From a virus (Duplodnaviria; Caudoviricetes), in the IMG/VR virus record IMGVR_UViG_3300044728_000138, positions 1-29,567 of that record: DNA of 29,567 nucleotides. The stretch is one strand, 5' to 3'. Position numbers and translations under genes: made by a program. The notes under the pieces were generated by a model, which saw nothing but the letters and a program-made list of their open reading frames with translations, searched no databases and was not told the DNA's origin. Positions 8,605-26,268 of the stretch are shown here, one piece after another (the first letter of the stretch is position 1; the number at the start of each line of letters is the position of its first letter).

Positions 8605-11600
8605 GTGTCCTTCGGTGGTGACTCGGCCAGTTTCGACATCCTGGTCAACTCCTCCGGCCTAGAGGAACTCGGCTCGAAGCTCGGCTCCTCGGTCGCGAAG
8701 GGCGTCAACACCGCAGAGAAGTCCGTCAAGGGTCTTGACCAGACCGTCGCTCACGTCGCCAAGTCGATCAGCGCCTCGTCGACGCAACTTGGCAAGGCCA
8801 TCGGCGCCAACGTCGCCAAGGGCATCAAGTCGAACTCGGCGTCGGTCCAGGCCGCCCTAATCCAGGCGGCCACCCAAGGCGTCCGCGGATCGCAGCAAGC
8901 AGCGGCAGCCGCGGCCAGGTCGAATCTCGCCGCCCAGAACGCAGCGGCACGGCTCCAGGTGGCTCAGACCACGGCGGCAGGCAAGCAGCAGGCCGCCATC
9001 GCGCAGAGCGTCGGTCAGCAGGCCGTCATCGCCGCGCGGACCTCGGGCGCCCAGCGCGTCGCTATCACTCGGGCCTTCCTCGACACGATCGGTCGGCTCG
9101 AGAAGGGCCTCGGCCGGGTCATCGAAGGCACCGCCTCGACGATCGTCTCCGCGACTCGGCGCGTCTTCGCCGGGACCGTCGGCTCGATCCAGCGGTCCTT
9201 CGCTCAGCGCCACGAGGTCATCACCAAGAACCTCCGCATCGAGCAGGGGCTGTTCGCTAGCGCAGCGGCCGTGCAGCAGCGCTCCTCGAGGGGCGTGCTC
9301 GGTCTTGGGCTTGGTGCTGCCGGTCTCATCGGGGGCGGTGCCCTGCTGGCGACGGGCATCCGGCAGATCTTCACGCTCGGCTCCGACTTCACGCGGGGTC
9401 TCAACGTTCTTCAGGCGCAACTCCAACTGACCGACGCCCAGATGAAGGGCGTCGACGCCCTTTCCATCAAACTCGGCAACGACATCAACCTGCCGGGCGT
9501 CTCGGCCCTGGACGCGGCCCAGGCGATCGGTCTGCTCGCCAAGCAGTTCGCGAGTCTGGGGCCAGCGGCGATCACCGCGGCACAGGATGCAGCGAAGGGC
9601 ACTCTCCAACTCGCCCGGGCCGTAGGCGCCGCGCCAGAGGAAGCAGCCCAGACCGTCGGTGCCGCCGTCAACGTCTTTGGTGAGAACGCCGCCAATGCGA
9701 CCAAGGTCGCGGATCAACTCACCGCGGCGCTGTCGCAGGCGGCCGGCACCTCCTTCTCCGACTTCAGCCAGGCCTTCACTCAGGGCGCCTCGGTCGTGTC
9801 GTCCTTCATCACTCCGGCTGACGGGGCGTCGAACGCGATCACGGAGTTCTCCGCGGCCTTGGCAGTGTTGGCTCGTGGCGGCCTGGTCGGGTCGGACGCC
9901 GGTACGTCGATCAAGCAGTTCTTCCTCCAGGCCAACCGCGGCACCAAGGAGGTCGCCGGGGCGCTCGCTGAGATCTCGGCCCGAGCTGGCGAGACGGGTA
10001 CGGCCTTCTTCACTGCTTCCGGCCAGTCGCGTTCCCTCGTGGAGACCATCTCGATTCTCGAGCGCGGCCTGAAGGGGCTCACAGCCGAGCAGCGCGCGTC
10101 GACCCTTCAGACGATCTTCGGCTCGGACGCCACCCGCGTTGCGAACATCCTCATCGACCAGGGGGCTGCGGCTCTGCTGACCGCCGAGGCAGCGGTCCAG
10201 CGCCAGGGCGCGGCGTCGGCCCTCGCGGCGGCTCAGAACAAGGGTCTGGCTGGCGCCATCGACGCCATCAAGTCTCAGTTCGAGACCTTCGGCATCCAGA
10301 TCTTCAAGGTCGTGCAGCCAGCCCTCGCGACAGCCGGGCTGGCCTTGGCGGGCTTCATCGACAAGCTCGCCAACGCCGGTGGGATCTTCGCTGCTGTGCG
10401 GGCGGGGCTGAAGGGCATCGGCGTCGCCCTCGGCGCGCTGGTCGCCATCAAGGGCCTGGTCGAAGTGGTCGGCTTCGCGAGGGCCTTGGTGGGTGCGCTC
10501 GGGCCTCTGGGCATCGCGGCGATCGTCCTTGGTGGCGCCATCGGCTTCCTACTGAAGCGCTTCGGCTCCTTCCAGGGAGTCCTCGACGCCGTTGGTCGGC
10601 TCGTCGAACGCGTCGCCCCGGCGGTCGCACGGCTGCGCAAGACAATCTTCGACTTCCTGTCCGGGCTGGCGCAGCGGGCCTCGTTCCTCGGCCGCTTCCG
10701 GGGCTTCCTGTCGCAGATCTTCGACCTACTTGGACAGGGCAAGCTGTCGCAGGCCTTCGACCGCGTGAAGGTCGCGGCCAAGGCACTCGCCGAGAACCTC
10801 GCGCCCGTGGGTCGGGCCTTCGCCAACCTCCGCAAGCCCATCGAGGCCTTCATCCAAGGCGATTTCGTCCGGGCCTTCGAGGGGCTGAAGGTCGTGGCCG
10901 GGCAGATTGGCACGGCAATCCGCAACGTCGTCTCGGCCGCGCTGAAGACCGTCGACCCCTTCGCTGGCATCGGCATCGAGTTCGTGAAGAAGTTCAAGGC
11001 CCAGTTCATCGGCGGCGGCATCGGTGCGATCGCAGGCGGGCTGCTGCTCGGCCCCATCGGCATCCCACTGGGCGCGGCTCTCGGCGTCGCCGTGACGAAC
11101 GCGCTTGGCAAGCTGAAGGACATCGTCGGCCGTGTCGACGTGGGCGCTCTGTTCGGCAAGTTCCTGGACGGGGTGCAACTCGTCGGCCGCAAGATCGGCG
11201 AGATCCTCTCCGACAAGCGGACCATTCTCGCTGTGGCTGGCGTGGCCGCTGCGGCCGCGGCTATCGCGGTGCAGTTCGTACAGGGCTTCGTGAAGGGGGT
11301 GCTGTCGAACCTCGGCGACATCCGGGCGGCCGGCGCTGAGATCCTCAAGGCGCTGTTCAACCTGCCGTCGGTGGCGAAGTCGATCCTCGCTCTTGTGGTT
11401 CTGATCCGCGGCACGTTGACGGGCCAGTTCAAGAGTGCCGGCATCGGTAAGGCCGTGGGCGCGGTCCTTGGCAAGGAGATCGCCGACGGCACCGCTCAGG
11501 CAGTGGATAAGGGGACCCTAGGTTCCAGGTTGAAGGGCGCCTTTGTCTCGATCGGCAAGGGGGCCGGGCAGGCCCTAAGCATCGGCATCTCGGCGGCGTT

Positions 11601-13944
11601 GTCGGGTTCCGCGCTCGGGTCGGCCAAGAGCGGCCTCGACCAGACTCTTGGTCTCGCATCGCTGGCTGGCTCCGTGGCTGCTGCCGGAGCTGTCTTCGGT
11701 CCGGTCGGAGCAGTGGGGGCGGCGGGCATCGGGCTAGTGACCACGGCCATGTCTCAGAACGCCCAGGCGGCTCAGGACGCCAGGGACAGGATGCTCCTGT
11801 TCCGAGACGCGATGATTCAGACCGGCGCCGCTGGTCCGGGAGTGGCGAAGGCCATCGACGCCGTCTTCGGCCCGGGTGGCTCCTTCCCGTCGGCGCTCAA
11901 GGGCACTCTCGCCGGCACCTCCTTTACCACCGAGGCCTTCACGAAGGCCATCAACGCTGGCAGGGGTAACGCGTTCATCAAGGACATTCAGAAGCAAGTC
12001 CTTGAGCTCACCGGCAGCATCCCGACGGCGACCGCCGTGGCCGGTCTCCTGACGCAGCAGTTGAAGGCCGCGGGCGGGGCGGCGAAGGACATCAAGCTCT
12101 CGAAGGAGCTAACCGATTCCGGCGGCGCGCTGGCGACCGTCAACCAGCGCGCGGGCCGCCTCGTGGTCACCGCGAAGGACGTGGCGAAGTTCGCCGCTGA
12201 GGCCGCCGCCAAGACTCGCGAGTTGTTCAAGGAGCAGCGTGCCGAGCGCCTCCAGGGGATCATGGACGCTTTGTCGGCGAAGGCCAAGGACATCGGCGAC
12301 AAGGCCGACGCCTCCAGGACCAAGTTGCTGGCGTTGTTCGGCACGGGCCAGGCGAAGACGCCCGATCAGGCCACGAACCAGGCCGTCGTCGCGACACCGG
12401 GTGCAGCGAGTGACGTGCAGGGCGCCATCGACACTGGTGTCACGACGGCGCTCGGCAAGGCGCAGTTGGCGACGGCACTGCAAGGCTTCAGCGCCAATGT
12501 CGGCGAGGCCCTCGTCACCGGGATCACGTCGGCTGATCCGCTCGGTGCCATCAGCCAGACGCTCCTGAGCGAGACCCTGGCGATCAACGCCCTTGAGGTC
12601 TCGCCCGAGGCCAAGCAGGCCCTTCTCGCCCAGTTGAACGCGGACTTCGCGACCGCCAAGGAGAAGATCCCCGTGGGCGTGGAGATCGCCCAGCAGGAGG
12701 CGGCTGCGGCGGGGCTGGAAGCCCAGCGTCAGGCGGCAGCGGCGGCAGCAGCGGCGGGCAAGATTCCGATTAGCTCGGGGGCCGACCTGGTGCAAGCACA
12801 GCAGGCAGGTCGTGAAGCGGCGCTCAAGGCCGGGACGGTGGCCGACGGCATCCCAGCGAACATCCGCTCCAAGGCCGACACCGGCTCGGCGACGGGAGCG
12901 GGCAACACGATTCACTCCACTGCCCAGAAGGCTGCGGACAAGCCGATCACTGTCGGCTCGACGGTCAACGTGAGCACCTTCGCTGGGACCAAGGCTGGCG
13001 GCGCCATCGCTTCGGCGGTGATGGCTGGGTTTAAGAGCGGTGTCTCTGCCAGCTCCGCCTCGGTCTCGAAGACCGTGACGACCGTCCTCAATGGCGCGGT
13101 CATCAACACCGCCCAAGCCACGCTGCGGATCTCGTCGCCGTCGAAGGTCTTCATGGAGATCGGTGAGCAGACGATGAAGGGCCTCGAGCAGGGCATCCGC
13201 GACGGCGGCGCAGCCGTGAAGTCCGCCGTGGAGGACGTGGCGCGGGCCATGATCGACGCCCTCAACACCCCAGGCAACAGCGTGCCCGGCGCTCTGAAGA
13301 CGCTGTTCGACGACACCTTCGAGCGGCTCGCCATCGGCGGCGGAGCAAACACGAGCAAGGCCGTCGAGGGGCTCACGACCGCGTTGCGGTCCGTCATCAC
13401 GCAGGTCCGCTCGAACGCCGAGACACTCTTTGCTGCTGGCTCGAAGCCCGAGGGCGAGCGGACCCTGGCCGAACGTCTTCTTCTCGGCGAGTCCTTCACC
13501 TCACTGCGCGCTGGAGACGAGTTCGGTGTCGCTAACCGGGGTGCGATCGCTGGCGCCGTCGACGCCATCAAGTCGATCGGTGAGGCTCTGCTCGAGCAGG
13601 GGTTCTCCGCCCAGGACGCTGCCAACCAGCTCGCCGCCTACCGCAACCAACTCGTTGCCACCGCGGTCCAGGCCGGGCTGTCGCAGGCCGAGGTCGAGGC
13701 TCTCGTCGTGTCGCTCGGGCTGTCGAACGCCGGCCTGGCTGCGTTCGTGGGCAACGCCAACAGGCTGAACCAGATCGTCGCCGAGGGTCAACGGAGGGCT
13801 GCCGTGCCGAACACGCCACCACCGCTGACGACGGGTCCGAATCCGACGCAGCAGTTCATCACGAACAACCTCTATCTCCCCACTGGTGACCCCGAGGCCA
13901 ACGCTCTCGCCGTCGTCAACCGACAGGCACTGGCGGTCCGGTGA
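8605..13944 (+). CDS. Tape measure protein (1779 aa)
   Basis: Very long Ala/Gly-rich helical protein after the chaperones. Has a TP901-type core (G..GS.AGTS.K, TIFGSDA.R.A), hydrophobic central segments and a late ISSPSKVF motif. Confidence 0.95.
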   Translation: MSFGGDSASFDILVNSSGLEELGSKLGSSVAKGVNTAEKSVKGLDQTVAHVAKSISASSTQLGKAIGANVAKGIKSNSASVQAALIQAATQGVRGSQQAAAAAARSNLAAQNAAARLQVAQTTAAGKQQAAIAQSVGQQAVIAARTSGAQRVAITRAFLDTIGRLEKGLGRVIEGTASTIVSATRRVFAGTVGSIQRSFAQRHEVITKNLRIEQGLFASAAAVQQRSSRGVLGLGLGAAGLIGGGALLATGIRQIFTLGSDFTRGLNVLQAQLQLTDAQMKGVDALSIKLGNDINLPGVSALDAAQAIGLLAKQFASLGPAAITAAQDAAKGTLQLARAVGAAPEEAAQTVGAAVNVFGENAANATKVADQLTAALSQAAGTSFSDFSQAFTQGASVVSSFITPADGASNAITEFSAALAVLARGGLVGSDAGTSIKQFFLQANRGTKEVAGALAEISARAGETGTAFFTASGQSRSLVETISILERGLKGLTAEQRASTLQTIFGSDATRVANILIDQGAAALLTAEAAVQRQGAASALAAAQNKGLAGAIDAIKSQFETFGIQIFKVVQPALATAGLALAGFIDKLANAGGIFAAVRAGLKGIGVALGALVAIKGLVEVVGFARALVGALGPLGIAAIVLGGAIGFLLKRFGSFQGVLDAVGRLVERVAPAVARLRKTIFDFLSGLAQRASFLGRFRGFLSQIFDLLGQGKLSQAFDRVKVAAKALAENLAPVGRAFANLRKPIEAFIQGDFVRAFEGLKVVAGQIGTAIRNVVSAALKTVDPFAGIGIEFVKKFKAQFIGGGIGAIAGGLLLGPIGIPLGAALGVAVTNALGKLKDIVGRVDVGALFGKFLDGVQLVGRKIGEILSDKRTILAVAGVAAAAAAIAVQFVQGFVKGVLSNLGDIRAAGAEILKALFNLPSVAKSILALVVLIRGTLTGQFKSAGIGKAVGAVLGKEIADGTAQAVDKGTLGSRLKGAFVSIGKGAGQALSIGISAALSGSALGSAKSGLDQTLGLASLAGSVAAAGAVFGPVGAVGAAGIGLVTTAMSQNAQAAQDARDRMLLFRDAMIQTGAAGPGVAKAIDAVFGPGGSFPSALKGTLAGTSFTTEAFTKAINAGRGNAFIKDIQKQVLELTGSIPTATAVAGLLTQQLKAAGGAAKDIKLSKELTDSGGALATVNQRAGRLVVTAKDVAKFAAEAAAKTRELFKEQRAERLQGIMDALSAKAKDIGDKADASRTKLLALFGTGQAKTPDQATNQAVVATPGAASDVQGAIDTGVTTALGKAQLATALQGFSANVGEALVTGITSADPLGAISQTLLSETLAINALEVSPEAKQALLAQLNADFATAKEKIPVGVEIAQQEAAAAGLEAQRQAAAAAAAAGKIPISSGADLVQAQQAGREAALKAGTVADGIPANIRSKADTGSATGAGNTIHSTAQKAADKPITVGSTVNVSTFAGTKAGGAIASAVMAGFKSGVSASSASVSKTVTTVLNGAVINTAQATLRISSPSKVFMEIGEQTMKGLEQGIRDGGAAVKSAVEDVARAMIDALNTPGNSVPGALKTLFDDTFERLAIGGGANTSKAVEGLTTALRSVITQVRSNAETLFAAGSKPEGERTLAERLLLGESFTSLRAGDEFGVANRGAIAGAVDAIKSIGEALLEQGFSAQDAANQLAAYRNQLVATAVQAGLSQAEVEALVVSLGLSNAGLAAFVGNANRLNQIVAEGQRRAAVPNTPPPLTTGPNPTQQFITNNLYLPTGDPEANALAVVNRQALAVR

Positions 13945-13945
13945 C

Positions 13946-15190
13946 ATGACCCATCACATGCAGTTCCTGTACTCGCTGAACGACGACGGCTCTGTTTGCG
14001 AAATATTCAATGGCGAGCGCCTCATGTCGTCACTGACCGACACCGGACTGTGCAACGTGCTCGGCATCAAGCAGCAGGGCACCGACTGTCGGTGGTCCGA
14101 CGGCACGCTGCCGCTCGCCCTTGACACCTGCTCGGTCGACGTCGACGGTGAGCACACATGGGAGCCGATCACCTTTGCCGGGGTCACCTGGCCCGGCAAT
14201 CCCGCGCCCTGGTGGGATGGGGTGGCCGACTCGGTCTCCTCCGGCGGCTATGGCTTCTGGATCGAAGAGTGGACCGGGCTCGACTCCGTCCACATGAAGC
14301 GCAACGCCGCGCAGCGCGCTGGTCGTCTCGGTGGGGCGAACTTCGGCTCGCTCGCCTCCCAGAGTCGGGTGTGGAAGATGAACTTGATCCTCGTCGGTGC
14401 ATCGGGCGCCGCGCTTGAGGACCTCTTCCGTTGGCTTGAGTCCACCCTCGCCGACTGTTGCGACCCGTGCGCTGGCTCGGAGATGCTGATCCGCACTGCC
14501 TGTCCGCCCGACGGGGACGCGGGCTTCGGCCTCTACCGGGCGAAGGGCGTCGCGCTGATCGAAGGGCTCCAGTGGGAGGCGCCGCCGATCGAGTCGCTCG
14601 GCTGCTTCATCCGTCGCGTGTCGGTGACGCTCGGCGTCTCCGATCCGTGCCTCTACTCGTGCGCTGTGAACTGTGCCGACCAGGAGGAGCTACCGAACAT
14701 CCTTGATTGTGTGCCCTTCGCTCTGTGGGCAGGCTGCAATGTCTCCTGCTCCGACATGCTCGACTACCGGATCTGCTGTCCGGTCCCGGCTGGCGGCCGC
14801 GGCACCGTGTCCCCGGTGGTGACGATCGAGAACGAAAGCTCGGGCGACTCGCCGGCGATGAGGATCTACGGGATGTCGGACCCGCTGAATGTCGGCTGTG
14901 ATCCGTGCTCGTTGCCGATCTGTCAGAACATCGTGACCACCCAGATCCCCGGCGGCTCAGCCCTGATGGTCGACTCCTCCTCGCGCCGCGTGCTGTTCCG
15001 CGGGCCTGACACCGGTCAGGAGTGGGTGGACGGGACGTCGTTCATCGACCCACCCGAGGGCACTGTGCCGACGTTCCTCCAGCTCTCTTGCGATCCGGGC
15101 TGGGTGGCGGTTGAGCCGGTGGCGCTCTGCGGTGACACCTCCGCGCTGAAGATCTCCGTGGACGTGGTCTCAAGAGTCGGCTGCTGCTGA
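13946..15190 (+). CDS. Minor tail protein (distal tail, Dit-like), very Cys-rich
   Basis: ATG 13946 right after the TMP stop; 414 aa, 24 Cys. APWWD, L..G..WL...L, DP.LY and IP.GS.L.VDS..RRV patterns match post-TMP proteins of related actinophages. Confidence 0.7.
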   Translation: MTHHMQFLYSLNDDGSVCEIFNGERLMSSLTDTGLCNVLGIKQQGTDCRWSDGTLPLALDTCSVDVDGEHTWEPITFAGVTWPGNPAPWWDGVADSVSSGGYGFWIEEWTGLDSVHMKRNAAQRAGRLGGANFGSLASQSRVWKMNLILVGASGAALEDLFRWLESTLADCCDPCAGSEMLIRTACPPDGDAGFGLYRAKGVALIEGLQWEAPPIESLGCFIRRVSVTLGVSDPCLYSCAVNCADQEELPNILDCVPFALWAGCNVSCSDMLDYRICCPVPAGGRGTVSPVVTIENESSGDSPAMRIYGMSDPLNVGCDPCSLPICQNIVTTQIPGGSALMVDSSSRRVLFRGPDTGQEWVDGTSFIDPPEGTVPTFLQLSCDPGWVAVEPVALCGDTSALKISVDVVSRVGCC

Positions 15191-15191
15191 C

Positions 15192-17459
15192 TTGAGCGCC
15201 ATCCCGCGCTATGTCTTGTCGGCAACCGAGGCCGCGGCGCGCATCGCCGGCTACATCTTCGGCGACGGCAACCCGGACGTGCAGTACAACCCGCTCGGCG
15301 GGCTGTGCTTCACTTTCATCGGAGCGGCCGAGTTCCAGACCGAGTGCGTGCGCTGCGCCGGGGTGATCGGCTGGACCGAGGGTGTCCAGTGGGCGCACGC
15401 CAACAACGGGAACTTCAAGGTCCGGCGCGACGCCCTCTATGCAGCACTCGGGATCACGGACTCGGCGCACGACCTCTACCACCGGGCCCTCAACCCGACC
15501 GGCACCTACACGCCGACGAGGATTCAGGTCGAGGCGTTCATGGCGTCGATCGTGGAGACCGAAGGCTCCTTCTCGACGAACCCGCCGAAGTTCTTCGACG
15601 AGGCCCGAGGCGGGATCTACGACCAGCGCATCGATGCGCTCGTGCTCACCATGCAGACGCAGATGCCGAGCGCTTTCCGCTCCGGCGTCGCTGCCAAGGC
15701 TTCACTCGCCGAGACTGACGCCTTCCCGATGCCGCTCATCACCGCGGCTCGCTACCCCGGCGACACGCCGGCCGACTGGCCTGACGGCGCTCCGCCCCCG
15801 CCCGACGAGACCCCGCCGGCGATCCCGACAGGGCTGAGCGCATTCGCCGGAAACACCCAGGTCACCCTCACCTGGAACATCCCGTCGGACCCTGACCTCG
15901 CTGGCTACATCCTCTACCGCGACGGCAACACGCAGGTCTACATCGGGGCGGTCCCGTCGTTCATCGACTCGAACCGCACCAACGGCGTGGAGGTCTGCTA
16001 CCAGGTCGCGGCCTACGACCTCTCCGAGAACGCCAGCGCGCTTTCGGCCGCGGTCTGCGCCACGCCAACAGGCGGCACGGACCCAGGCGACACGGTCCCG
16101 CCAGACGCTCCGTCCGCCCTCACTGGGTCGACGGGCGGCACGACCGCCACCCTGTCCTGGACGGGCTCTGTGGCCTCCGACGTCGCCTCTTACCGGGTGT
16201 ACCGCGGCTCGGTCCTTGTGGCCACCGTGGCGGCCCCTACGACGCTCTACACGGACACCGGGCTGACGCCGGACACGATCTACGCCTTCCGGGTCACAGC
16301 GGTCGACTCGGCGGGCAACGAGAGCACCTCGACGCCGTTCCTGAGTCTCACCACCGCCGACGTTCCCGTCGATCCGCCGCTCATCACCCAGACCCCGATC
16401 CAGGTCGTCGACCGGCTTGGGTGTGGCGAGACTCAGGCATTCATCGCGCACCGCTCCGGTTGGCCGCTCCTCACCGAACTTCCTGGCACCGGAGGCTCAT
16501 GGAACCGGGTGATGGACGACATCTCTGACGCCAAGGTGACCATGGAGCAGGCCAACCTGCCCGCCGAGTGCGCCTCGATCCTCCAGGGGATCACCCGCTG
16601 GGCCTATGAGCTCGTGATCTTCCGCGACGGCGTTCGGGTCCACACCGGGCCGATCCAGGACGTGCTGCCGGAGGGCGAGAACCTGACGGTCACGTCGAGG
16701 GACAAGATGGCCTGGCCGACGGTGCGGCCGATCTGGACCTACCTCAACTACCCGGACCCGGGCGAAGAGATGGCGACGATCTTCAACGACGTGATCGCCA
16801 ACGCGATGGGCCCCGACAACGTGCCTGGTCTCGTCGGCACGGCCACGGCCACCGGGCTGCGCGCCACCCGCGAGTACAAGCCGAACCCGCCCCAGTACGC
16901 GTGGGACGCCCTCAACGAGCTCTGCCGTACCGGCGTGGACTTCACCATGATCGGCCCGACGATGGTGGCAGGATCGTTCATCGTCCCCGCCTCCCCCATC
17001 GCCTTCCTCACCGAGCAGGCTTTCGCCGGGCTCCCCTCTACGCCGCTGCTGGCCGCCAACGTGGCCACCCAGTGGTTCGTGACCGGCGATCCGCAGGAGG
17101 ATCTCCTGGCGTCCGCGGGCGGCATCGACCCCCTCGTCGGCCTCGTCGTGCGTATCGCTCAGGAAGATGACATCAAGGACCAGGTATCTCTGGATCAGAA
17201 CGCTCGCTCGAGATGGGAGTTGACCAACAGCCCGCTCGTCGCCGAGTCCTCCTTCACTCTCTCGCCCGAGGCGCCCTGGCCGGTCGAGCTCATGGTGCCG
17301 GGCTGCATCGTCGACATCCGTTTCTTCGAGACCCTGTTCCCGATCGTCGGGCGGTTCCGCCTCAAGCGGGTTGAGTTCGATTGGTCTGCTGGCGGCGACG
17401 GTCCGGCCGAGACATGCCGGGTCACTGTCGAGCCCGTCGGTACGGAGTTGATTTCCTGA
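15192..17459 (+). CDS. Tail hub/tip protein with N-terminal LAGLIDADG-like domain and two fibronectin type III domains
   Basis: 755 aa, TTG start. Two FN3 repeats (P.GL.A..G...V.LTW...D.DLAGY..YR...Y.V.A.D...N.S) at about 15805-16360. C-terminal region from LGCG on (W.RVMDDIS.A.V, W.YELVIFRDG.RV..GP, G.DFT) is a Gp37/Tal-like hub. Confidence 0.75.
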   Translation: MSAIPRYVLSATEAAARIAGYIFGDGNPDVQYNPLGGLCFTFIGAAEFQTECVRCAGVIGWTEGVQWAHANNGNFKVRRDALYAALGITDSAHDLYHRALNPTGTYTPTRIQVEAFMASIVETEGSFSTNPPKFFDEARGGIYDQRIDALVLTMQTQMPSAFRSGVAAKASLAETDAFPMPLITAARYPGDTPADWPDGAPPPPDETPPAIPTGLSAFAGNTQVTLTWNIPSDPDLAGYILYRDGNTQVYIGAVPSFIDSNRTNGVEVCYQVAAYDLSENASALSAAVCATPTGGTDPGDTVPPDAPSALTGSTGGTTATLSWTGSVASDVASYRVYRGSVLVATVAAPTTLYTDTGLTPDTIYAFRVTAVDSAGNESTSTPFLSLTTADVPVDPPLITQTPIQVVDRLGCGETQAFIAHRSGWPLLTELPGTGGSWNRVMDDISDAKVTMEQANLPAECASILQGITRWAYELVIFRDGVRVHTGPIQDVLPEGENLTVTSRDKMAWPTVRPIWTYLNYPDPGEEMATIFNDVIANAMGPDNVPGLVGTATATGLRATREYKPNPPQYAWDALNELCRTGVDFTMIGPTMVAGSFIVPASPIAFLTEQAFAGLPSTPLLAANVATQWFVTGDPQEDLLASAGGIDPLVGLVVRIAQEDDIKDQVSLDQNARSRWELTNSPLVAESSFTLSPEAPWPVELMVPGCIVDIRFFETLFPIVGRFRLKRVEFDWSAGGDGPAETCRVTVEPVGTELIS

Positions 17460-19291
17460 TGTCCTCTCGCAACGTCGCCTCCCTCGATCGCAGGCTCCAG
17501 GAAGTTCTGAATGACCTGTACGATCGCGTCAGACGGGTAGAGCGCCGCCGTCCGACAGGCACTGGGTCCGGGGTCTGTGACTGCGAGGACGGCGCCGAAG
17601 GGCCTCCAGGAGCGGACGGGGCTGATGGGCCCGCAGGACCCGCAGGAGCCGCAGGAGCCGACGGTGCCCCAGGAGCGGTCGGTGCTGATGGCGCCGACGG
17701 GACTGATGGCGGTTGGGGTGGAGCCGTCACCATCCCCTACCACTTCTCCACCACGACCACGAACTCTGACCCCGGCTCCGGCAACCTGCGACTTGACAAC
17801 GCCACCCAGACGTCGGCCGTCACGCTGCGCGCCAACGTGCTGGACGTGAACGCGGCGTCGTGGGAAACGATGCTTGACGCGATGGACTTTCCGACGTCCA
17901 CGCCGAAGGGCTACCTCCGGCTGGTCCGCGACGCCGACCCGACCGACTGGATGCTTTGGGAACTCCAAAGCGTCGACTCTTCCTCGGGCTACCGCAACAT
18001 CGGCATCAACCTCGTCGAGGTCGGGAACCAAGCTGGTGCCTCCCCCTTCGTCAATGGCGAGTTGGTCTACCTCCTCTACGACCGCAACGGCGATGCGGGG
18101 GCCGACGGGGCCGACGGCACGACCGCCACTTCGATCGTGGCCTCCGCTGTCCGCACCTCCTCGGGCGCGACTGGCGTCACGACCATCACCGACATCACGG
18201 GGGCGTCGGCCACCTTCACCGCCGTCGCTGGTCGGCAGTACGAGATCACCGCACAGGCGATGGCAGCGAAAGTCTCTGGCTCCCCAACACGGTGGGGACT
18301 GCGGCTCATCAGGGGCTCTACGACAATCGCGGAAGATGACCAGGCCATTACAGCGACCGGGAACATGGGCGCCACGATCGTGGCCATCGACACCCCCGGT
18401 GCCGGGTCCGTGACCTACAAGCTCGCCCTGCTTCCTGATGCCGGGACGATCGACCACGTCGCCGCCGCTACCGCTCCCACGTATCTCATCGTCAAGGATT
18501 TGACCGGCGGTGCGACGACCGGCGCGATCACCACCGCCGCTCCCCTCGGTGCCCCCGGCACAGCGAACCTGGTCCGCTCCTACAAGGGCGTCATGTTCAT
18601 GGACACCGGGAACTACTGGTGGCCGATGGGCGGGGCGATGGAGCAGGTCCAGTCCGAGTGGACGCACTTCTTCAACAACGATGCCCAGAAGGGCGAGCTC
18701 CAGTCGAGTGCCTCCGGCACCGGCGCAGCGGTGAACGCTGGCACGGCAGCGGCTGGAGCCCAGGGCGTCGTGTCGCTCGACGCTGGTACCACGAGCACTG
18801 GGCGAGCGGGCTACGCGGCAGGCCAGTCGAACGCCCTGCGAGGCACCGCCGACAAACTCATGCACATCCACGCCCGGGTGCGCTTCCCGACGCTCTCTAC
18901 CTCAGGTGAGCGCTACTACTTCACGATGGGCTTCCTCTCGTCGCTCACCGGCATCCCGGGGGACGGCTTCTACTTTCGCTACGACGAGTCGGTCAACGCG
19001 AACTGGTACGCGGTGGTGGTCAACAACACCGTCGGCACCGCAGGCGTGAACACTGGGGTGGCCGTGGCGGCCAACAGCTTCCAGAAGCTCCGCATCGAGA
19101 TCGACGAGCCGAACGTCTCGGCCAAGTTCTACATCGCTGACTCGCTAGTCAGCACGATCACGACGAACTTCCCGGGCTCCACCAGGGACTTCGGCCCGGT
19201 GATCAACATGCGGAAGACCGTCGGCACTACCTCAAGAACCTGCGACGTCGACTACTTCGGCTACTGGAGCCTGATGACCACCACGGTCTGA
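17459..19291 (+). CDS. Minor tail/fibre protein with collagen-like segment and C-terminal beta-sandwich (receptor-binding candidate)
   Basis: ATG 17459 (TGATG coupling), 610 aa. N-terminal coiled coil (L..L..RVRRVER), 13 Gly-X-Y triplets, then beta-rich domains ending in ...F.KLRIEID...KFYI...DVDYF. Confidence 0.75.
   Translation: MSSRNVASLDRRLQEVLNDLYDRVRRVERRRPTGTGSGVCDCEDGAEGPPGADGADGPAGPAGAAGADGAPGAVGADGADGTDGGWGGAVTIPYHFSTTTTNSDPGSGNLRLDNATQTSAVTLRANVLDVNAASWETMLDAMDFPTSTPKGYLRLVRDADPTDWMLWELQSVDSSSGYRNIGINLVEVGNQAGASPFVNGELVYLLYDRNGDAGADGADGTTATSIVASAVRTSSGATGVTTITDITGASATFTAVAGRQYEITAQAMAAKVSGSPTRWGLRLIRGSTTIAEDDQAITATGNMGATIVAIDTPGAGSVTYKLALLPDAGTIDHVAAATAPTYLIVKDLTGGATTGAITTAAPLGAPGTANLVRSYKGVMFMDTGNYWWPMGGAMEQVQSEWTHFFNNDAQKGELQSSASGTGAAVNAGTAAAGAQGVVSLDAGTTSTGRAGYAAGQSNALRGTADKLMHIHARVRFPTLSTSGERYYFTMGFLSSLTGIPGDGFYFRYDESVNANWYAVVVNNTVGTAGVNTGVAVAANSFQKLRIEIDEPNVSAKFYIADSLVSTITTNFPGSTRDFGPVINMRKTVGTTSRTCDVDYFGYWSLMTTTV
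17591..17707 (+). repeat. Collagen-like (Gly-X-Y)13 coding repeat
   Basis: GAE GPP GAD GAD GPA GPA GAA GAD GAP GAV GAD GAD GTD. Confidence 0.9.
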
Positions 19292-21820: not shown

Positions 21821-24130
21821 ATGGCGCACGGTCCTGGCGGTCCTATCGCCGTTCTGGTCGCGGCCGTAGAGAATCGCGCGGTCACCGGGTCCACTGGCAC
21901 CGTCGCAGTCACCCTTGCGAACTTCACTGGGGCAGCCAGCGGTGAAGAGACGATCACTGGCACGAGTGCGCGAACTCTGGCCAACTTCACGGGCGCGGCG
22001 TCCGGCACGGTGGCCAACCCGGTCACCGGCACCGTTGCGGTAACGCTGGAGAACTTCACCGCGGCTGGGCTTGGCTCGGGGATCATCACCGGGACGAGCG
22101 CGGTCACCCTCGCGAACTTCACGTCGGCTGCCACGGGGGCCGAGACAATCACCGGTACGGTGGCGCGAACTCTGGCCAACTTCACGAGCACGGCCAGCGG
22201 CACTGGAGCCAACCCGGTCACCGGCACGGTGGCGCGAACCTTGGCGAACTTCACGAGTTCTGCCAGTGCCACCGAATACGTCCTCATCGACGAGTTCTCT
22301 GGCTCGTCGATCGACTCGACCCTCTGGGACGTCTATAACCGGATCGGCGACGAGGTCAACGGCGAGGTCAACGCCGTCATCCCGGCCAATGTCCGGGTGT
22401 CGTCCGGCACGCTCAAGATCGACTCGAAGTTCGAGGACGTCGTCACCCAGGACACCGACACGGCCCCGACCACGGTTCACTACACGTCGGGGCAGATCGC
22501 CCAGAAGAGGTTGCCGTTCAAGTACGGCGATGTCCGGGTCCGGGCGCAGATACCGGGTGGCACCGGGCTGTGGCCGTGCATCTGGATGCTGGGCTACAAG
22601 TGGCAGGCGTCTCAGCCCTACAACGCGAATGTCACCGGCGCGGACTGGCCGAACGACGGCTGGTGCGAGGTCGACATCGCCGAGTTCATGTTCAACCATC
22701 GCAACGATGTCAACACGTCATTGCATTGGAATACCCCTGGCTCTACCGAAGAGCGGGCCTTGCCGTTCGACGCGACGACCCGGTTCATGGTGTACCGGTT
22801 GTTGTGGACACCCACGTCGCTGACTTGGTACGTCGACGCCGAGGATGGCAACGGATTCGTCACACTCCGCACCGTCACCGGTACCGCCGGCGTGGATATC
22901 CCGAACGTCGCGACGTATCTAATCATTCACACGGCGATCGGTGGCACGGGCGGCGGCACTCCCGTCTCGGGGACCTTCCCGCAGACGATGGAAGTCGACT
23001 ACGCCAGGATTCTCGCCACCAGCGACACCGTCATTCCGCCGATGGCGGCCGTGGTCCTCCAGAACTTCACCAGCTCGGCCTCGGGCACCTCGGGGATCTC
23101 GATCTCCGGTACGTCGGCCACCACCCTCGCGAACTTCACGGGGGCCGCATCCGGCACCGAGACGATCACGGGCACAGTCGCTGCCACTCTCGCCAACCTC
23201 ACGTCGAGCGCCTCGGGCACAGAGACGATCACCGGGACGAGCGCGGTAACCCTCGCGAACTTCACGGGCGCGGCCAGTGGCACCGAGACGATCACGGGCA
23301 CCGTTGCTGCGACCCTCCAGAACTTCACCGGTTCGGCGTCTGGTCTGGCAGACATCGTTGGCACGAGCGCGGTCACCCTCGCGAATTTCACGTCGGCCGC
23401 CACGGGGTCCGAGACAATCACAGGCTCCTCGGCCACCACGCTCCAGAACTTCTCGTCGACGGCGTCTGGTCTGGCAGACATCACCGGAACCGTCGCGGTA
23501 ACCCTCGCGAACTTCACAGGGGCGGCTTCCGGGTCGATCACGAACCCCGGCAGCAACGGCGCCTCGGTTCTCCAGGACTTCACGGGGGCTGCCTCCGGCT
23601 CCGTAGTCTTCACAGGCACCTCGGCCACGACCCTCCAGAACTTCACGTCCGCTGCATCCGGCACCGAGGCCATCTCGGGCTCTGCGGCCGTAACGCTCGC
23701 CCCCTTCACGTCATCGACGACGGGCACCGAGACGATCACAGGCAGCGTCGCGGTCGCACTGGCGAACTTCGCAGCGTCCGCCGTTGGCTCCGAGTCGTTC
23801 ATCGGCACCGTGGCCCGGACGCTCGCCAACTTCATCTGCGCCGCCACCGGCACCTCGCTGAGCGCGGGCGGTTCGGCCGCCGTCACTCTCCAGAACTTCG
23901 TGGCGGCCGGCGTCGGCGTCGTGACGAACCCACCTGGAGGACTGGGGGACCGGCTGCCGTTCGACGACAACGTTGTTGTGATGATCGGCGGCAGCTTCAA
24001 CACCTCGGCGATCATCGGTCAGATCCGTCTCGGGACGACGGTCACCGGAGACGATGACACGGTCCTCATCGTCGACCGACAGGCCCAACGCCACACAACC
24101 TTCGACGAATGGACCGTGCTCCTGCCCTAG
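21821..24130 (+). CDS. Repeat-containing fibre protein with internal GH16 glycoside hydrolase domain
   Basis: 769 aa with 20 copies of a 21-23 aa TGTxAxTLxNFTxxASGxETI repeat (6 before and 14 after the insert). Insert at about 22274-23011 has DEF.G, YTSG.I, F.YG....RA..P.G.GLWP.IWML, EVDIAE, F.VY.L.WTP....WYVD and FPQTMEVDY.R. Confidence 0.85.
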   Translation: MAHGPGGPIAVLVAAVENRAVTGSTGTVAVTLANFTGAASGEETITGTSARTLANFTGAASGTVANPVTGTVAVTLENFTAAGLGSGIITGTSAVTLANFTSAATGAETITGTVARTLANFTSTASGTGANPVTGTVARTLANFTSSASATEYVLIDEFSGSSIDSTLWDVYNRIGDEVNGEVNAVIPANVRVSSGTLKIDSKFEDVVTQDTDTAPTTVHYTSGQIAQKRLPFKYGDVRVRAQIPGGTGLWPCIWMLGYKWQASQPYNANVTGADWPNDGWCEVDIAEFMFNHRNDVNTSLHWNTPGSTEERALPFDATTRFMVYRLLWTPTSLTWYVDAEDGNGFVTLRTVTGTAGVDIPNVATYLIIHTAIGGTGGGTPVSGTFPQTMEVDYARILATSDTVIPPMAAVVLQNFTSSASGTSGISISGTSATTLANFTGAASGTETITGTVAATLANLTSSASGTETITGTSAVTLANFTGAASGTETITGTVAATLQNFTGSASGLADIVGTSAVTLANFTSAATGSETITGSSATTLQNFSSTASGLADITGTVAVTLANFTGAASGSITNPGSNGASVLQDFTGAASGSVVFTGTSATTLQNFTSAASGTEAISGSAAVTLAPFTSSTTGTETITGSVAVALANFAASAVGSESFIGTVARTLANFICAATGTSLSAGGSAAVTLQNFVAAGVGVVTNPPGGLGDRLPFDDNVVVMIGGSFNTSAIIGQIRLGTTVTGDDDTVLIVDRQAQRHTTFDEWTVLLP
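21884..23930 (+). repeat. Imperfect 63-69 bp coding tandem repeats in two blocks flanking GH16
   Basis: Recurrent ACCCTCGCGAACTTCAC and GGCACCGAGACGATCAC. Duplicated stretches include GCCAACCCGGTCACCGGCAC and GTCTGGTCTGGCAGACATC. Confidence 0.85.
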
Positions 24131-24171
24131 ATCCCGGTGTGCACTGCTGTCTGACGCTACGGTGTGTACTC

Positions 24172-25068
24172 GTGGCTTCCCTCGCACCGCCTTACCACCC
24201 GGTCTCCTCGTGGCAGGACGGCCGCTATCCGGTCCAATCCTCGGAGGCGCCGATCCCGTCGAGGCAGCGCTACCAGGTCATCCACTGGCCGGGCGCGGCG
24301 AACTCGACACTGGCTCAGGCGCCTGGCCCTCAGTTCAACGCCGAGATGGTCCGGTTGCTCCGAGGCGAGCAGCAGTCCTATGTCCTCGGCCGCGGCTACT
24401 CGCTCGGCTACAACTGGTGCGTCGCTCCTGACGACATCGACGGCTGGGCGAGCGTCTGGGAGATTCGGGGCTCGCGCTACCGCTGCGCAGCCAACGGTGA
24501 CGCCACCACCAACATCTTCGGCCAGGCCATCCAACTCAAGACGCCGAGTTACCGTCGAGCGACGCCTGCCCAGGTCCGCTCGGTGCAGTGGATCATCGCC
24601 ACCCAGATCCGCAACCTCGCCCCGGGCGCGCAGATCATCGTCGGTCACAACCAGGTCCGCCCTGAGCCCACCGCCTGCCCCGACCCGTTCATCCCCGACG
24701 TCAACGAGGGTGTGTTCCAGCCCGTCTACACGCCGCCGCCGCAGGACTGCTATCCGAAGGGCTACGACCCCGAGAAGGGCGACTTCGGCCTCTACCCGTT
24801 CAACCGGTCGAAGCCGCCGCTCGGTCCCGGCTCCGGTTACAAGGACGGCACCCAGTGGCAGCAGCAGTACTGCGAGTACGCGAACTGGGTGATGCGCGTC
24901 AAAGCCGGACGGCCCTACATGAAGCGCTGCGAAGAGGTCGTCTGGACCATCCAGTCGATGGCTGGTCTCATGGACATCCAGAACTTCGTCGGCCGCGTGC
25001 CGACCGGCTGGATGACCATCGAAGACTGGCGCGTCATCGACGTCCTCGCAGGCAACCCCAACCCGTAG
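24172..25068 (+). CDS. Endolysin, N-acetylmuramoyl-L-alanine amidase (Amidase_2 type)
   Basis: Zn-ligand pattern VIHW...LGYNW.V...WEIRG...T.AQ...IVGH.....TACP, then a Pro-rich linker and C-terminal domain. Start GTG 24172 preferred over 24109, which overlaps the upstream gene. Confidence 0.8.
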   Translation: MASLAPPYHPVSSWQDGRYPVQSSEAPIPSRQRYQVIHWPGAANSTLAQAPGPQFNAEMVRLLRGEQQSYVLGRGYSLGYNWCVAPDDIDGWASVWEIRGSRYRCAANGDATTNIFGQAIQLKTPSYRRATPAQVRSVQWIIATQIRNLAPGAQIIVGHNQVRPEPTACPDPFIPDVNEGVFQPVYTPPPQDCYPKGYDPEKGDFGLYPFNRSKPPLGPGSGYKDGTQWQQQYCEYANWVMRVKAGRPYMKRCEEVVWTIQSMAGLMDIQNFVGRVPTGWMTIEDWRVIDVLAGNPNP

Positions 25069-25075
25069 GAGACCG

Positions 25076-25405
25076 ATGTCCTTCAAGACCCAGCACCCCC
25101 TCAAGACCGAGGCCGTCGCCGTGTTCGGCACCCTGGCCGGCGTCGCAGCGGGCGTGACCGCCTGGCTGACCGACGTCCTCGAGCCGTGGGCCCAGGGCCT
25201 CGTGACCGCGGGCGTCGCCTTTGTCGTGGCGCTGATCGCTCGCTTCGTTGTTTGGTCCCAGCGCTCGGTGGATGAGCTTCAAGGCAACCACCTCGATGAC
25301 GAGGAGGTCATCGCCGAGCACGCTGAGCGGATGAACGCCGCGAGCCCGCCGGCGGATCTCTCCAAGCTCACACCGGGTGAGACGATCCACATCGCGGAGG
25401 GCTGA
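25076..25405 (+). CDS. Holin-like membrane protein
   Basis: 109 aa, two hydrophobic helices, KTEAV and AR..V motifs, AGGAG RBS. Lies between the two lysins. Confidence 0.65.
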   Translation: MSFKTQHPLKTEAVAVFGTLAGVAAGVTAWLTDVLEPWAQGLVTAGVAFVVALIARFVVWSQRSVDELQGNHLDDEEVIAEHAERMNAASPPADLSKLTPGETIHIAEG

Positions 25406-26268
25406 TGCCCGAGGCGAAGGTCATCGACATCTCGGTGGCCCAGCTCACCTCCGCGGACATCAAGAGCACGGGCGCGATCGGCGTCGTCCAGTACCTCTCG
25501 CTGCCGGGGACTCGCCCTGGCTTCAACGAGGCGAAGCGGATCAAGAAGCCCGTGTACGACGACCGCCTCGCTTGGGGTCTCGCCGTGGCGCTCGTGTTCC
25601 AGGTCGACAAGGCCGACTACCTCGGCGGCTACGCGAGGGGCTTCGAGTTCGGGCGCGCCAGCCGCGAGCAGTCCACGGCGCTCGGCCATCCTGACTCGGC
25701 TGGCGTGATCCTCTGCGTGCAGGACTCGGGCATCCCGCGCGGCAGCTTCGGCCTCGCCGTCGAACACACGCGGGGCTACGTGGATGGCCGTGGCCTCGGC
25801 CCACAGCCCGCTTACTGCGGCACAGACCTCGGCAACTACCTTGTCGGCGCTGGACTGACGACGTGGCTCTGGCAGCCAGCAGCGGCCTCGTGGTCGACCT
25901 CTCCGAGTCCGCACGTTGCCATGCAGCAGCTCCAATCGAAGTCCTACCCCTGGCCGCCGACGGCCTACGACGAGAACCTGGTGCTCCAGCCCGACTGGGG
26001 CCAGAACCCGCGACCAGGACTCCCACCGCCCCCGCCTGGGGGGCCGAACCTATTGGAGGACGAGATGCTTTGGGCTCGGTTCTACGGCGAGAACCAGGAT
26101 GTGGCCTTCGGCGCCACCGGCTGGCGCTACATCACGCCGGAGCAGCGTGACCAGTTGCTCTTCATGAAGCTGCTGCGGCCGATGGCGGGGACGACCTTCC
26201 CGCAGGTGCTCGGGAACAACCCAGCCGAGGGCGCGCAGTGGAAAGCGCGCTACGCCCAGTTCGGCTGA
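25405..26268 (+). CDS. Second lysin, DUF1906/Rv2525c-like (GH25-related) glycoside hydrolase
   Basis: 287 aa with ID.S, G..GV..YLS, K.I, GL.V.LVFQ, GGY.RG, LG.P....I, W.WQ..A..WS, ..QQ and D.N....DWGQ, then a Pro linker. Confidence 0.75.
   Translation: MPEAKVIDISVAQLTSADIKSTGAIGVVQYLSLPGTRPGFNEAKRIKKPVYDDRLAWGLAVALVFQVDKADYLGGYARGFEFGRASREQSTALGHPDSAGVILCVQDSGIPRGSFGLAVEHTRGYVDGRGLGPQPAYCGTDLGNYLVGAGLTTWLWQPAAASWSTSPSPHVAMQQLQSKSYPWPPTAYDENLVLQPDWGQNPRPGLPPPPPGGPNLLEDEMLWARFYGENQDVAFGATGWRYITPEQRDQLLFMKLLRPMAGTTFPQVLGNNPAEGAQWKARYAQFG

Follow-up and report, generated by a model that had tools for sequence, protein, structure and literature searches.

A phage tail-tip hub protein with an N-terminal domain predicted to adopt the LAGLIDADG homing-endonuclease fold

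Introduction

Why would a phage tail-tip protein begin with what looks like a homing endonuclease, and what could such a domain do there? The question is raised by gene 15192–17459 (+ strand) in the 29.6-kb stretch of viral DNA analysed here (the window), a fragment of a virus record with an estimated completeness of 41%. A first-pass annotation made from the sequence alone had read two LAGLIDADG motifs in the N-terminal part of the product. It had proposed either a domesticated endonuclease fold displayed on the tail tip or a virion-carried nuclease, directed for example against extracellular DNA or delivered at infection. The domesticated LAGLIDADG proteins treated in the reviews consulted (WhiA, HO and the maturases) act on nucleic acid within cells. 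A LAGLIDADG fold fixed on the exterior of a virion would, if true, be a new endpoint of domestication.

Results

Genomic setting of the hub gene

The window contains a siphophage-type structural operon in which Pfam and PHROGs recognized the portal, major head, adaptor, major tail and tape measure genes; a collagen-containing fibre gene and two endolysin-like genes (Pfam, PHROGs) follow gene 15192–17459. The tape measure protein (8605–13944, +; PF10145, E 3.8e-24) is followed by a gene matching phrog_838 (13949–15190, +), which was assigned as the putative distal tail protein (Dit) by its position between tape measure and hub. The order of tape measure, Dit-position gene and hub matches that of cultured phages. 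The product of the Dit-position gene is unusually rich in cysteine; when four relatives are compared, many of its cysteines are invariant and a Cys-Cys pair ends the protein. Elsewhere in the window, 21821–24130 encodes a 769-aa protein with many Thr/Ala/Ser-rich repeats of ~21 residues and a GH16 glycoside hydrolase domain in mid-protein (E 3.2e-14), possibly a virion fibre bearing a glycanase. The endolysin-like genes (24109–25068 and 25405–26268) lie one on each side of a holin-like gene (25076–25405).

Cultured phage relatives infect Streptomyces and Arthrobacter, and a complete relative, G003 (72,349 bp, with terminal repeats), encodes a WhiB-like protein; the host of the window phage is therefore probably an actinobacterium. 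In G003 the terminase is distant from the portal, and a phrog_850 RNA-binding protein, glycosyltransferases and the WhiB-like gene are present (L031:11026–12540, L031:15323–16918, L032:11914–16254 and L033:5172–6677). Contigs covering the hub gene came from runs on two soil samples of two studies and from one freshwater-sediment run; no RNA data set was listed as containing the gene sequence.

The hub is encoded only as a fusion with a long N-terminal extension

Gene 15192–17459 encodes a 755-aa tail-tip hub (Tal/gp27-like) protein with an N-terminal extension, in the order LAGLIDADG-fold domain, Pro linker, two FN3 domains and gp27-like hub. The first domain, a monomeric two-repeat LAGLIDADG fold by AlphaFold and VIA, spans residues 5–196 (15204–15779, +). 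It leads into a Pro-rich linker (15780–15809, +), and pLDDT falls below 50 at residues 180–203 of the full-length model. FN3 domain 1 occupies about residues 207–292 (15810–16067, +), as recognized by PHROGs and by a beta-sandwich in the model, and FN3 domain 2 about residues 303–389 (16098–16358, +), as recognized by PF00041 at 305–382 (E 1.3e-12) and by the model. The gp27-like hub domain comprises residues 409–755 (16416–17456, +; Foldseek, phrog_837 and tblastn) and starts at L409-G-C-G. The linker, FN3 pair and hub from LGCG that had been read from the sequence were thus recovered by Pfam, PHROGs and the model.

The hub matches phrog_837 (E 6e-30) and, by tblastn, Streptomyces phage minor tail proteins. 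The best matches of the full-length model are likewise gp27-like hubs (MuSo2 tail protein, E 5e-13; Mu gp44, 7e-13), with overall Foldseek E values for the hub of 2e-13 to 7e-13 and target TM scores of 0.55–0.57 for MuSo2 and Mu gp44. In its predicted gp27/gp44 fold, its place as second gene after the tape measure and its single copy, the gene has features of a gp27-like hub. In the full-length model (pLDDT 73.9, pTM 0.41) the chain is divided into four distinct domains, and the linkers between them have low confidence; these linkers and the pTM would fit a beads-on-a-string arrangement. Cultured relatives have hub-only genes of about 350–370 aa (four records). Within phrog_837, the hub aligns to positions 342–670 of the 681-position profile and the N-terminal domain has no match to it; because the alignment is confined to those positions, other phrog_837 members may carry long N-terminal extensions.

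The gene starts with TTG one base past the stop of the upstream gene, and no Shine-Dalgarno match accompanies this start. The start is conserved in L005–L007, and homologous loci begin at the corresponding codon, 0–1 bases from the upstream stop or overlapping it. In the window, the stretch from codon 347 up to codon 409, where the hub begins, is free of in-frame ATG, GTG or TTG, and in three relatives no in-frame start occurs within 20 codons of the hub start. A search of three genomes, of which one is complete, found a single hub gene in each. Pfam and PHROGs detected no Hint or intein family anywhere on the 755-aa protein, in agreement with the earlier reading that no intein splice motifs flank the domain; the domain begins at residue 5 and the Pro linker follows directly, an arrangement that lacks the Hint domain and junction residues of an intein. 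Rfam gave no match in 14500–18000 at E up to 1, and the ORF start has no spare flanking sequence on either side, which departs from a group I or II intron. With no nearby start, a single hub gene, no Hint domain and no Rfam match, the hub must, on the sequence, be translated only as a fusion with its extension. A downstream start for the hub, the alternative flagged in the first-pass annotation, is thus not what the conserved start and the start-free stretch of codons 347–409 indicate.

The assembly was also checked, as had been advised. One contig of run X2, from a sample possibly related to the source of the window, bridges the fusion by spanning 14900–16496 and shows a single difference; the four runs compared list neither an indel nor a joint at the gene. 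The fusion is no assembly artefact.

The N-terminal domain is predicted to adopt the LAGLIDADG fold

Translation of the ORF placed both motifs where they had been reported. Motif 1, IAGYIFGDG (residues 18–26; 15243–15269, +), ends a helix at 11–25, and motif 2, MASIVETEG (residues 117–125; 15540–15566, +), ends a helix at 110–124. D25 (15264–15266) and E124 (15561–15563) are each the eighth motif residue, separated by 99 residues. A two-motif pattern with a spacing of 80–150 residues arose in 0 of 200,000 domain shuffles and a single motif in 489 of 200,000, the pattern being loose, written after the motifs had been seen and fitted by only 10 of the 17 family members.

Sequence searches with residues 1–196 returned no match by Pfam, PHROGs or PDB sequences. 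At E values up to 10, no LAGLIDADG family of Pfam matched any of the 17 members, and PF14528 had no match in G000 or four relatives. A profile of the domain run against 1.84 billion representatives gave three matches, all of them family members; the LAGLIDADG-fold hub-domain family is therefore small and isolated. A limited search for a stand-alone form yielded none among 8,000 scored candidates of 106–357 aa. The domain was absent from all 187 pattern matches in GTDB genomes and was not found in cultured phages, where the single match had an E of 4. Of the 64 parts of the metagenome collection, 33 were scanned.

An AlphaFold model of residues 1–196, computed from an alignment of 17 sequences, had a pLDDT of 90.6 and a pTM of 0.90, and its helix–strand order is that of a two-repeat LAGLIDADG protein. 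When VIA compared it with 48,161 solved chains, the top 18 rows were all LAGLIDADG proteins, the first unrelated row having a Z of 4.3. The best were PI-SceI (Z 11.5; rmsd 3.5 Å over 160 residues), the TliVMA intein (11.2), I-DmoI (11.1) and WhiA (11.1). Foldseek scores were weak (best I-DmoI, E 2.6e-3, TM 0.50), with LAGLIDADG proteins in 31 of the 31 PDB rows listed. ESM Atlas features placed the domain beside LAGLIDADG_3 clusters (0.91), and the ten best family matches all belonged to one clan; the copy of the domain in the homologue P0017 gave no usable match. A BFVD fold search of 50 rows returned 18 unnamed and 32 named proteins, the latter mostly endonucleases or enzymes of intein-hosting kinds, with no tail or virion protein among the 32. 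Membership of the LAGLIDADG superfamily is thus seen in the fold (model and VIA) and not in sequence profiles. The fold, set beforehand as one of two tests on which the initial interpretation would stand or fall, is agreed on by AlphaFold, VIA, Foldseek and ESM Atlas, and we are highly confident of both the architecture and the LAGLIDADG fold of the N-terminal domain.

The domain had been called poor in Lys and Arg. It does contain only 14 such residues in 195, but the share is about equal to that in the hub (23 of 347), and the telling feature is instead a net acidic charge: −6 with a pI of 5.0 in the window, and −2 to −7 with pI 4.8–5.7 across all 17 domains. Strands in the domain model are 3–7 residues long and repeat 2 has three assigned strands only, from which the putative DNA-binding saddle is small in the model. 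Homing endonucleases have a positively charged DNA-binding sheet (PMC3384342). The net charge of all 17 members (−2 to −7) and the strand lengths of 3–7 residues in the model are not those expected of an extended, positively charged sheet.

The domain appears domesticated and inherited with the hub

A search made through the domain found 16 homologous proteins, and 15 of them share the order of domain, FN3 pair and hub, so the architecture does recur in other phages as had been asked. The exception, P0017, has the domain at residues about 296–496 of a 1002-aa BNR-repeat protein without a hub; it had no PHROG match and no viral contig. In P0018, a phosphoesterase domain (PF04185, E 6.6e-7) lies at residues about 215–545, between the LAGLIDADG-fold domain and the FN3 pair, showing that the arm can bear a phosphoester hydrolase.

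Identity to the window is higher in the domain than in the hub in 12 of the 15 hub-bearing homologues (exceptions P0005, P0015 and P0018). Selection was estimated from the close pair L006/L011 only, because JC-corrected dS is unreliable at GC3 near 0.9; for the domain of this pair, pN was 0.000 and pS 0.034. Trees of domain and hub (16 rows, P0017 excluded) share the clades P0001/3/4/5/6, P0015/18 and P0013/14, with no supported conflict. Because the protein set had been gathered via the domain, IMG/VR was also scanned with hub and Dit alignments as seeds; both scans returned the same four contigs, a small sample in which two are near-identical, and all four carry the domain. The patchy presence and empty alleles of homing mobility were not seen, no empty allele occurring among these four contigs.

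Taken together, the lack of an intein, the higher conservation of the domain than of the hub, the congruent trees, the acidic charge in 17 of 17 members and the short strands make the domain look domesticated. The suggestion of a domesticated fold gains support from conservation and tree congruence.

A candidate metal site is kept in nearly all members

Both motifs have the acidic residue at position 8 that marks LAGLIDADG homing endonucleases; D25 is retained by 16 of 17 members, as is E124. As described in PMC3384342, metal is bound in I-DmoI by D21 and E117, the acids of its two motifs, with assistance from lysines close by (K43 and K130). In WhiA, by the same account, both acids and the lysines are absent, the sheet is of mixed charge and there is no cutting. 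The phage family retains both motif acids down to 46% domain identity.

Further conserved residues lie outside the motifs. The short strand of repeat 2 carries K133-x-x-D136-x-x-R139 (15588–15608, +), with K133 and R139 present in 17 of 17 members and D136 in 16 of 17, and these are candidate second-shell and basic active-site residues. R187 (15750–15752, +), invariant in 17 of 17, is a candidate basic active-site partner, as judged from homing-endonuclease layouts; the correspondence of K133, R139 and R187 to lysines of I-DmoI or PI-SceI is likewise assumed from such layouts. Past strand 2 of repeat 1, where we would expect the equivalent of I-DmoI K43 to lie, the family has no conserved basic residue.

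P0005 is the one member that lacks the acids. It differs from the rest at 5 of 45 otherwise invariant columns, and three of the five are D25A, E124Q and D136E (its own residues 25, 125 and 137); the 1-in-100 figure for joint loss of the acids was obtained post hoc from this one sequence. The joint change suggests that the acids share a metal site, one that the protein can in some cases do without. The P0005 gene is otherwise intact despite the loss, so at least one lineage has no need of any catalysis. The branch of the P0005 domain is long (0.22, vs 0.058 for the hub branch), which together with the joint change suggests that a function was lost there and kept elsewhere. The pattern fits a putative shared metal site that is under selection in the other members and was lost once.

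HNH genes occupy the same junction in close relatives

In L001 and L006 the hub follows directly after Dit, whereas the near-identical L011 and L013 each have a different HNH gene at this point: L011:453–848 (131 aa; PHROG, E 2.4e-39) and L013:3137–3610 (vs L001:3795; 157 aa; Pfam, E 2.5e-12). The L011 gene borrows the first four codons of the hub as the opening of its own frame, which then overlaps a hub start that has been re-created. L013 diverges from L001 over the ~130 bases that follow the insert. An apparent extra base is present at the L013 hub start, near the contig end.

HNH insertion at the start of the gene illustrates a plausible route to the fusion. By this route, a free-standing LAGLIDADG gene would have inserted at the hub start codon and lost its stop, yielding a read-through fusion. 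An intein-derived donor is as likely an origin, and our searches for the domain found no donor gene or family.

Discussion

The explanation that we tentatively favour is that the N-terminal domain is a virion-displayed, low-specificity, metal-dependent phosphodiesterase derived from a domesticated homing endonuclease. The hubs of mycobacteriophages and actinophage baseplates are homotrimers (PMC13252515), so that each particle would have three arms. Three copies of the domain would then sit outside the tail tip on flexible Pro-FN3-FN3 arms. D25 and E124 would bind metal and support catalysis, and the domain would cleave a phosphate-linked polymer met before infection, such as extracellular DNA or a teichoic-acid-like wall polymer. 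In its favour are the retained acids with their joint change in P0005, the invariant K133, R139 and R187, and the phosphoesterase domain that the arm bears in P0018. Several points stand against this explanation: the acidic domains, the small saddle, the missing basic residue of repeat 1 and the P0005 domain without acids, and also the lack of a sequence-level link to LAGLIDADG families, the weak Foldseek scores and the absence of a usable Atlas match for P0017. That a working LAGLIDADG-derived nuclease, having lost its long recognition site, clears DNA or phosphodiester wall polymers outside the tail tip is a possibility that we hold a little more tentatively still.

Most of these points also feed the main rival, a virion-borne adhesin or docking module that does not cut and instead grips a phosphate-rich surface polymer, DNA or a tail protein, perhaps via a metal. 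FN3 arms of tail proteins often bear binding modules. Acidic domains with short strands, the gap in repeat 1, the intact P0005 gene and the occurrence of the domain inside the BNR-repeat protein P0017 would all suit a binder, and WhiA provides a precedent in which the fold was kept and cleavage lost. Nevertheless, we regard this rival as somewhat less likely than the favoured explanation: both acids are kept down to 46% domain identity, unlike in WhiA, and the joint change in P0005 with its longer domain branch looks like loss of a function that the other members kept. The same acids could serve a site-specific endonuclease acting inside the cell, fused or after proteolysis, for homing of the tail module or for exclusion of competitors, with its presence in virions incidental. 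Such a role has parallels in the in-frame host-gene fusions of rps3 with LAGLIDADG in fungal mitochondria (PMC7902536) and in the domestication of homing nucleases by phages for conflict (Odn; PMC10055350), and the junction does attract endonuclease genes (the HNH genes of L011 and L013). We nonetheless consider it improbable, given a predicted saddle whose size and acidity hardly suit a long target, close relatives without an empty allele (4 of 4 contigs with the domain), and vertical inheritance with the hub together with slower change than in the hub.

The position of the domain at the ejection gate, along with the kept acids, might also suggest that it is freed from the tail tip, enters the cell with the genome and cuts host or defence DNA. 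However, the domain is predicted to be tethered to the N-terminus of the hub by two FN3 domains, the linkers show no evident conserved motif for cleavage, and hubs are not known to be injected. Among the options first proposed, delivery at infection is the weakest, and we judge it very improbable. Finally, the gene could be an assembly or annotation artefact, or the domain could be what remains, without function, of an intein or an intron-encoded endonuclease that has died. Many viral proteins with a LAGLIDADG fold in BFVD are intein-bearing enzymes, and the gene does start at a TTG without a Shine-Dalgarno match. Against these, the fusion is common to 15 of 16 homologues, the run X2 contig crosses 14900–16496 with one difference, neither a Hint domain nor an Rfam match in 14500–18000 was detected, and the L006/L011 pair indicates purifying selection. 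This last explanation is largely refuted, and the chance that we leave it is negligible.

If the favoured phosphodiesterase is active, it would be a new kind of virion enzyme alongside tail lysins and depolymerases, and a new job for a selfish nuclease. We see a fair chance of a new class of virion enzyme. At ~190 residues, the domain would also be a very compact single-chain LAGLIDADG scaffold. The family comes with built-in controls, namely P0005 without the acids, the hub-only cultured relatives and the close relatives with HNH genes at the junction, through which both its function and its origin can be tested directly.

Both parent kinds are known already, as domesticated LAGLIDADG proteins on one side and hubs with added modules on the other. 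The first-pass annotation knew of no described example of their union, and the full texts that our literature search reached, in which subscription journals are thinly covered, likewise described no virion protein with a LAGLIDADG domain. The introns in capsid and tail genes of Cluster J mycobacteriophages were considered as a parallel; as described in PMC3706429, they are spliced out and represent a different arrangement.

Among known systems, the monomeric LAGLIDADG enzymes (I-DmoI, PI-SceI, I-Tsp061I and intein domains) share the two alpha–beta repeats around the motif helices (Z 10.8–11.5, rmsd 3.4–3.8 Å over 149–165 residues), and the monomeric homing endonucleases also have an acidic position 8 in both motifs. 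The phage domain differs from these enzymes in its 9–13% identity, short strands and net acidic charge, and in being fused to a virion protein with neither an intron or intein nor mobility. WhiA/DUF199 likewise combines a domesticated LAGLIDADG fold of the monomeric type (Z 11.1) with a second, fused domain, and its sheet is no longer uniformly basic, as described in PMC3384342. However, WhiA has lost the acids, carries a helix-turn-helix at its C-terminus and regulates transcription inside the cell, whereas in the phage domain the acids are still present and the partners are FN3 domains and a hub. The rps3-LAGLIDADG fusions of Ophiostomatales mitochondria similarly place a LAGLIDADG coding sequence in frame with a host gene; these are patchy (‘a few instances’) and intracellular by that account (PMC7902536), whereas in the phages the fusion is N-terminal, fixed within the clade and part of a virion protein. 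ICP1 Odn and yeast HO are homing nucleases put to host use with catalysis kept, but Odn is of the T5orf172/GIY-YIG type, and both are reported to cut a specific site inside cells, neither being described there as a virion component (PMC10055350, PMC7282813). On the phage side, gp28 of Streptomyces phage Xkcd426, gp30 of Streptomyces phage TurkishDelight and gp31 of Arthrobacter phage Rizwana (phrog_837) are homologous hubs at 25–29% identity, with the same place in the tail operon and the same Mu gp44/T4 gp27 fold. These proteins consist of the hub only, at about 350–370 aa, whereas the hub of the window phage carries in addition the 400-residue extension that begins with the LAGLIDADG-fold domain.
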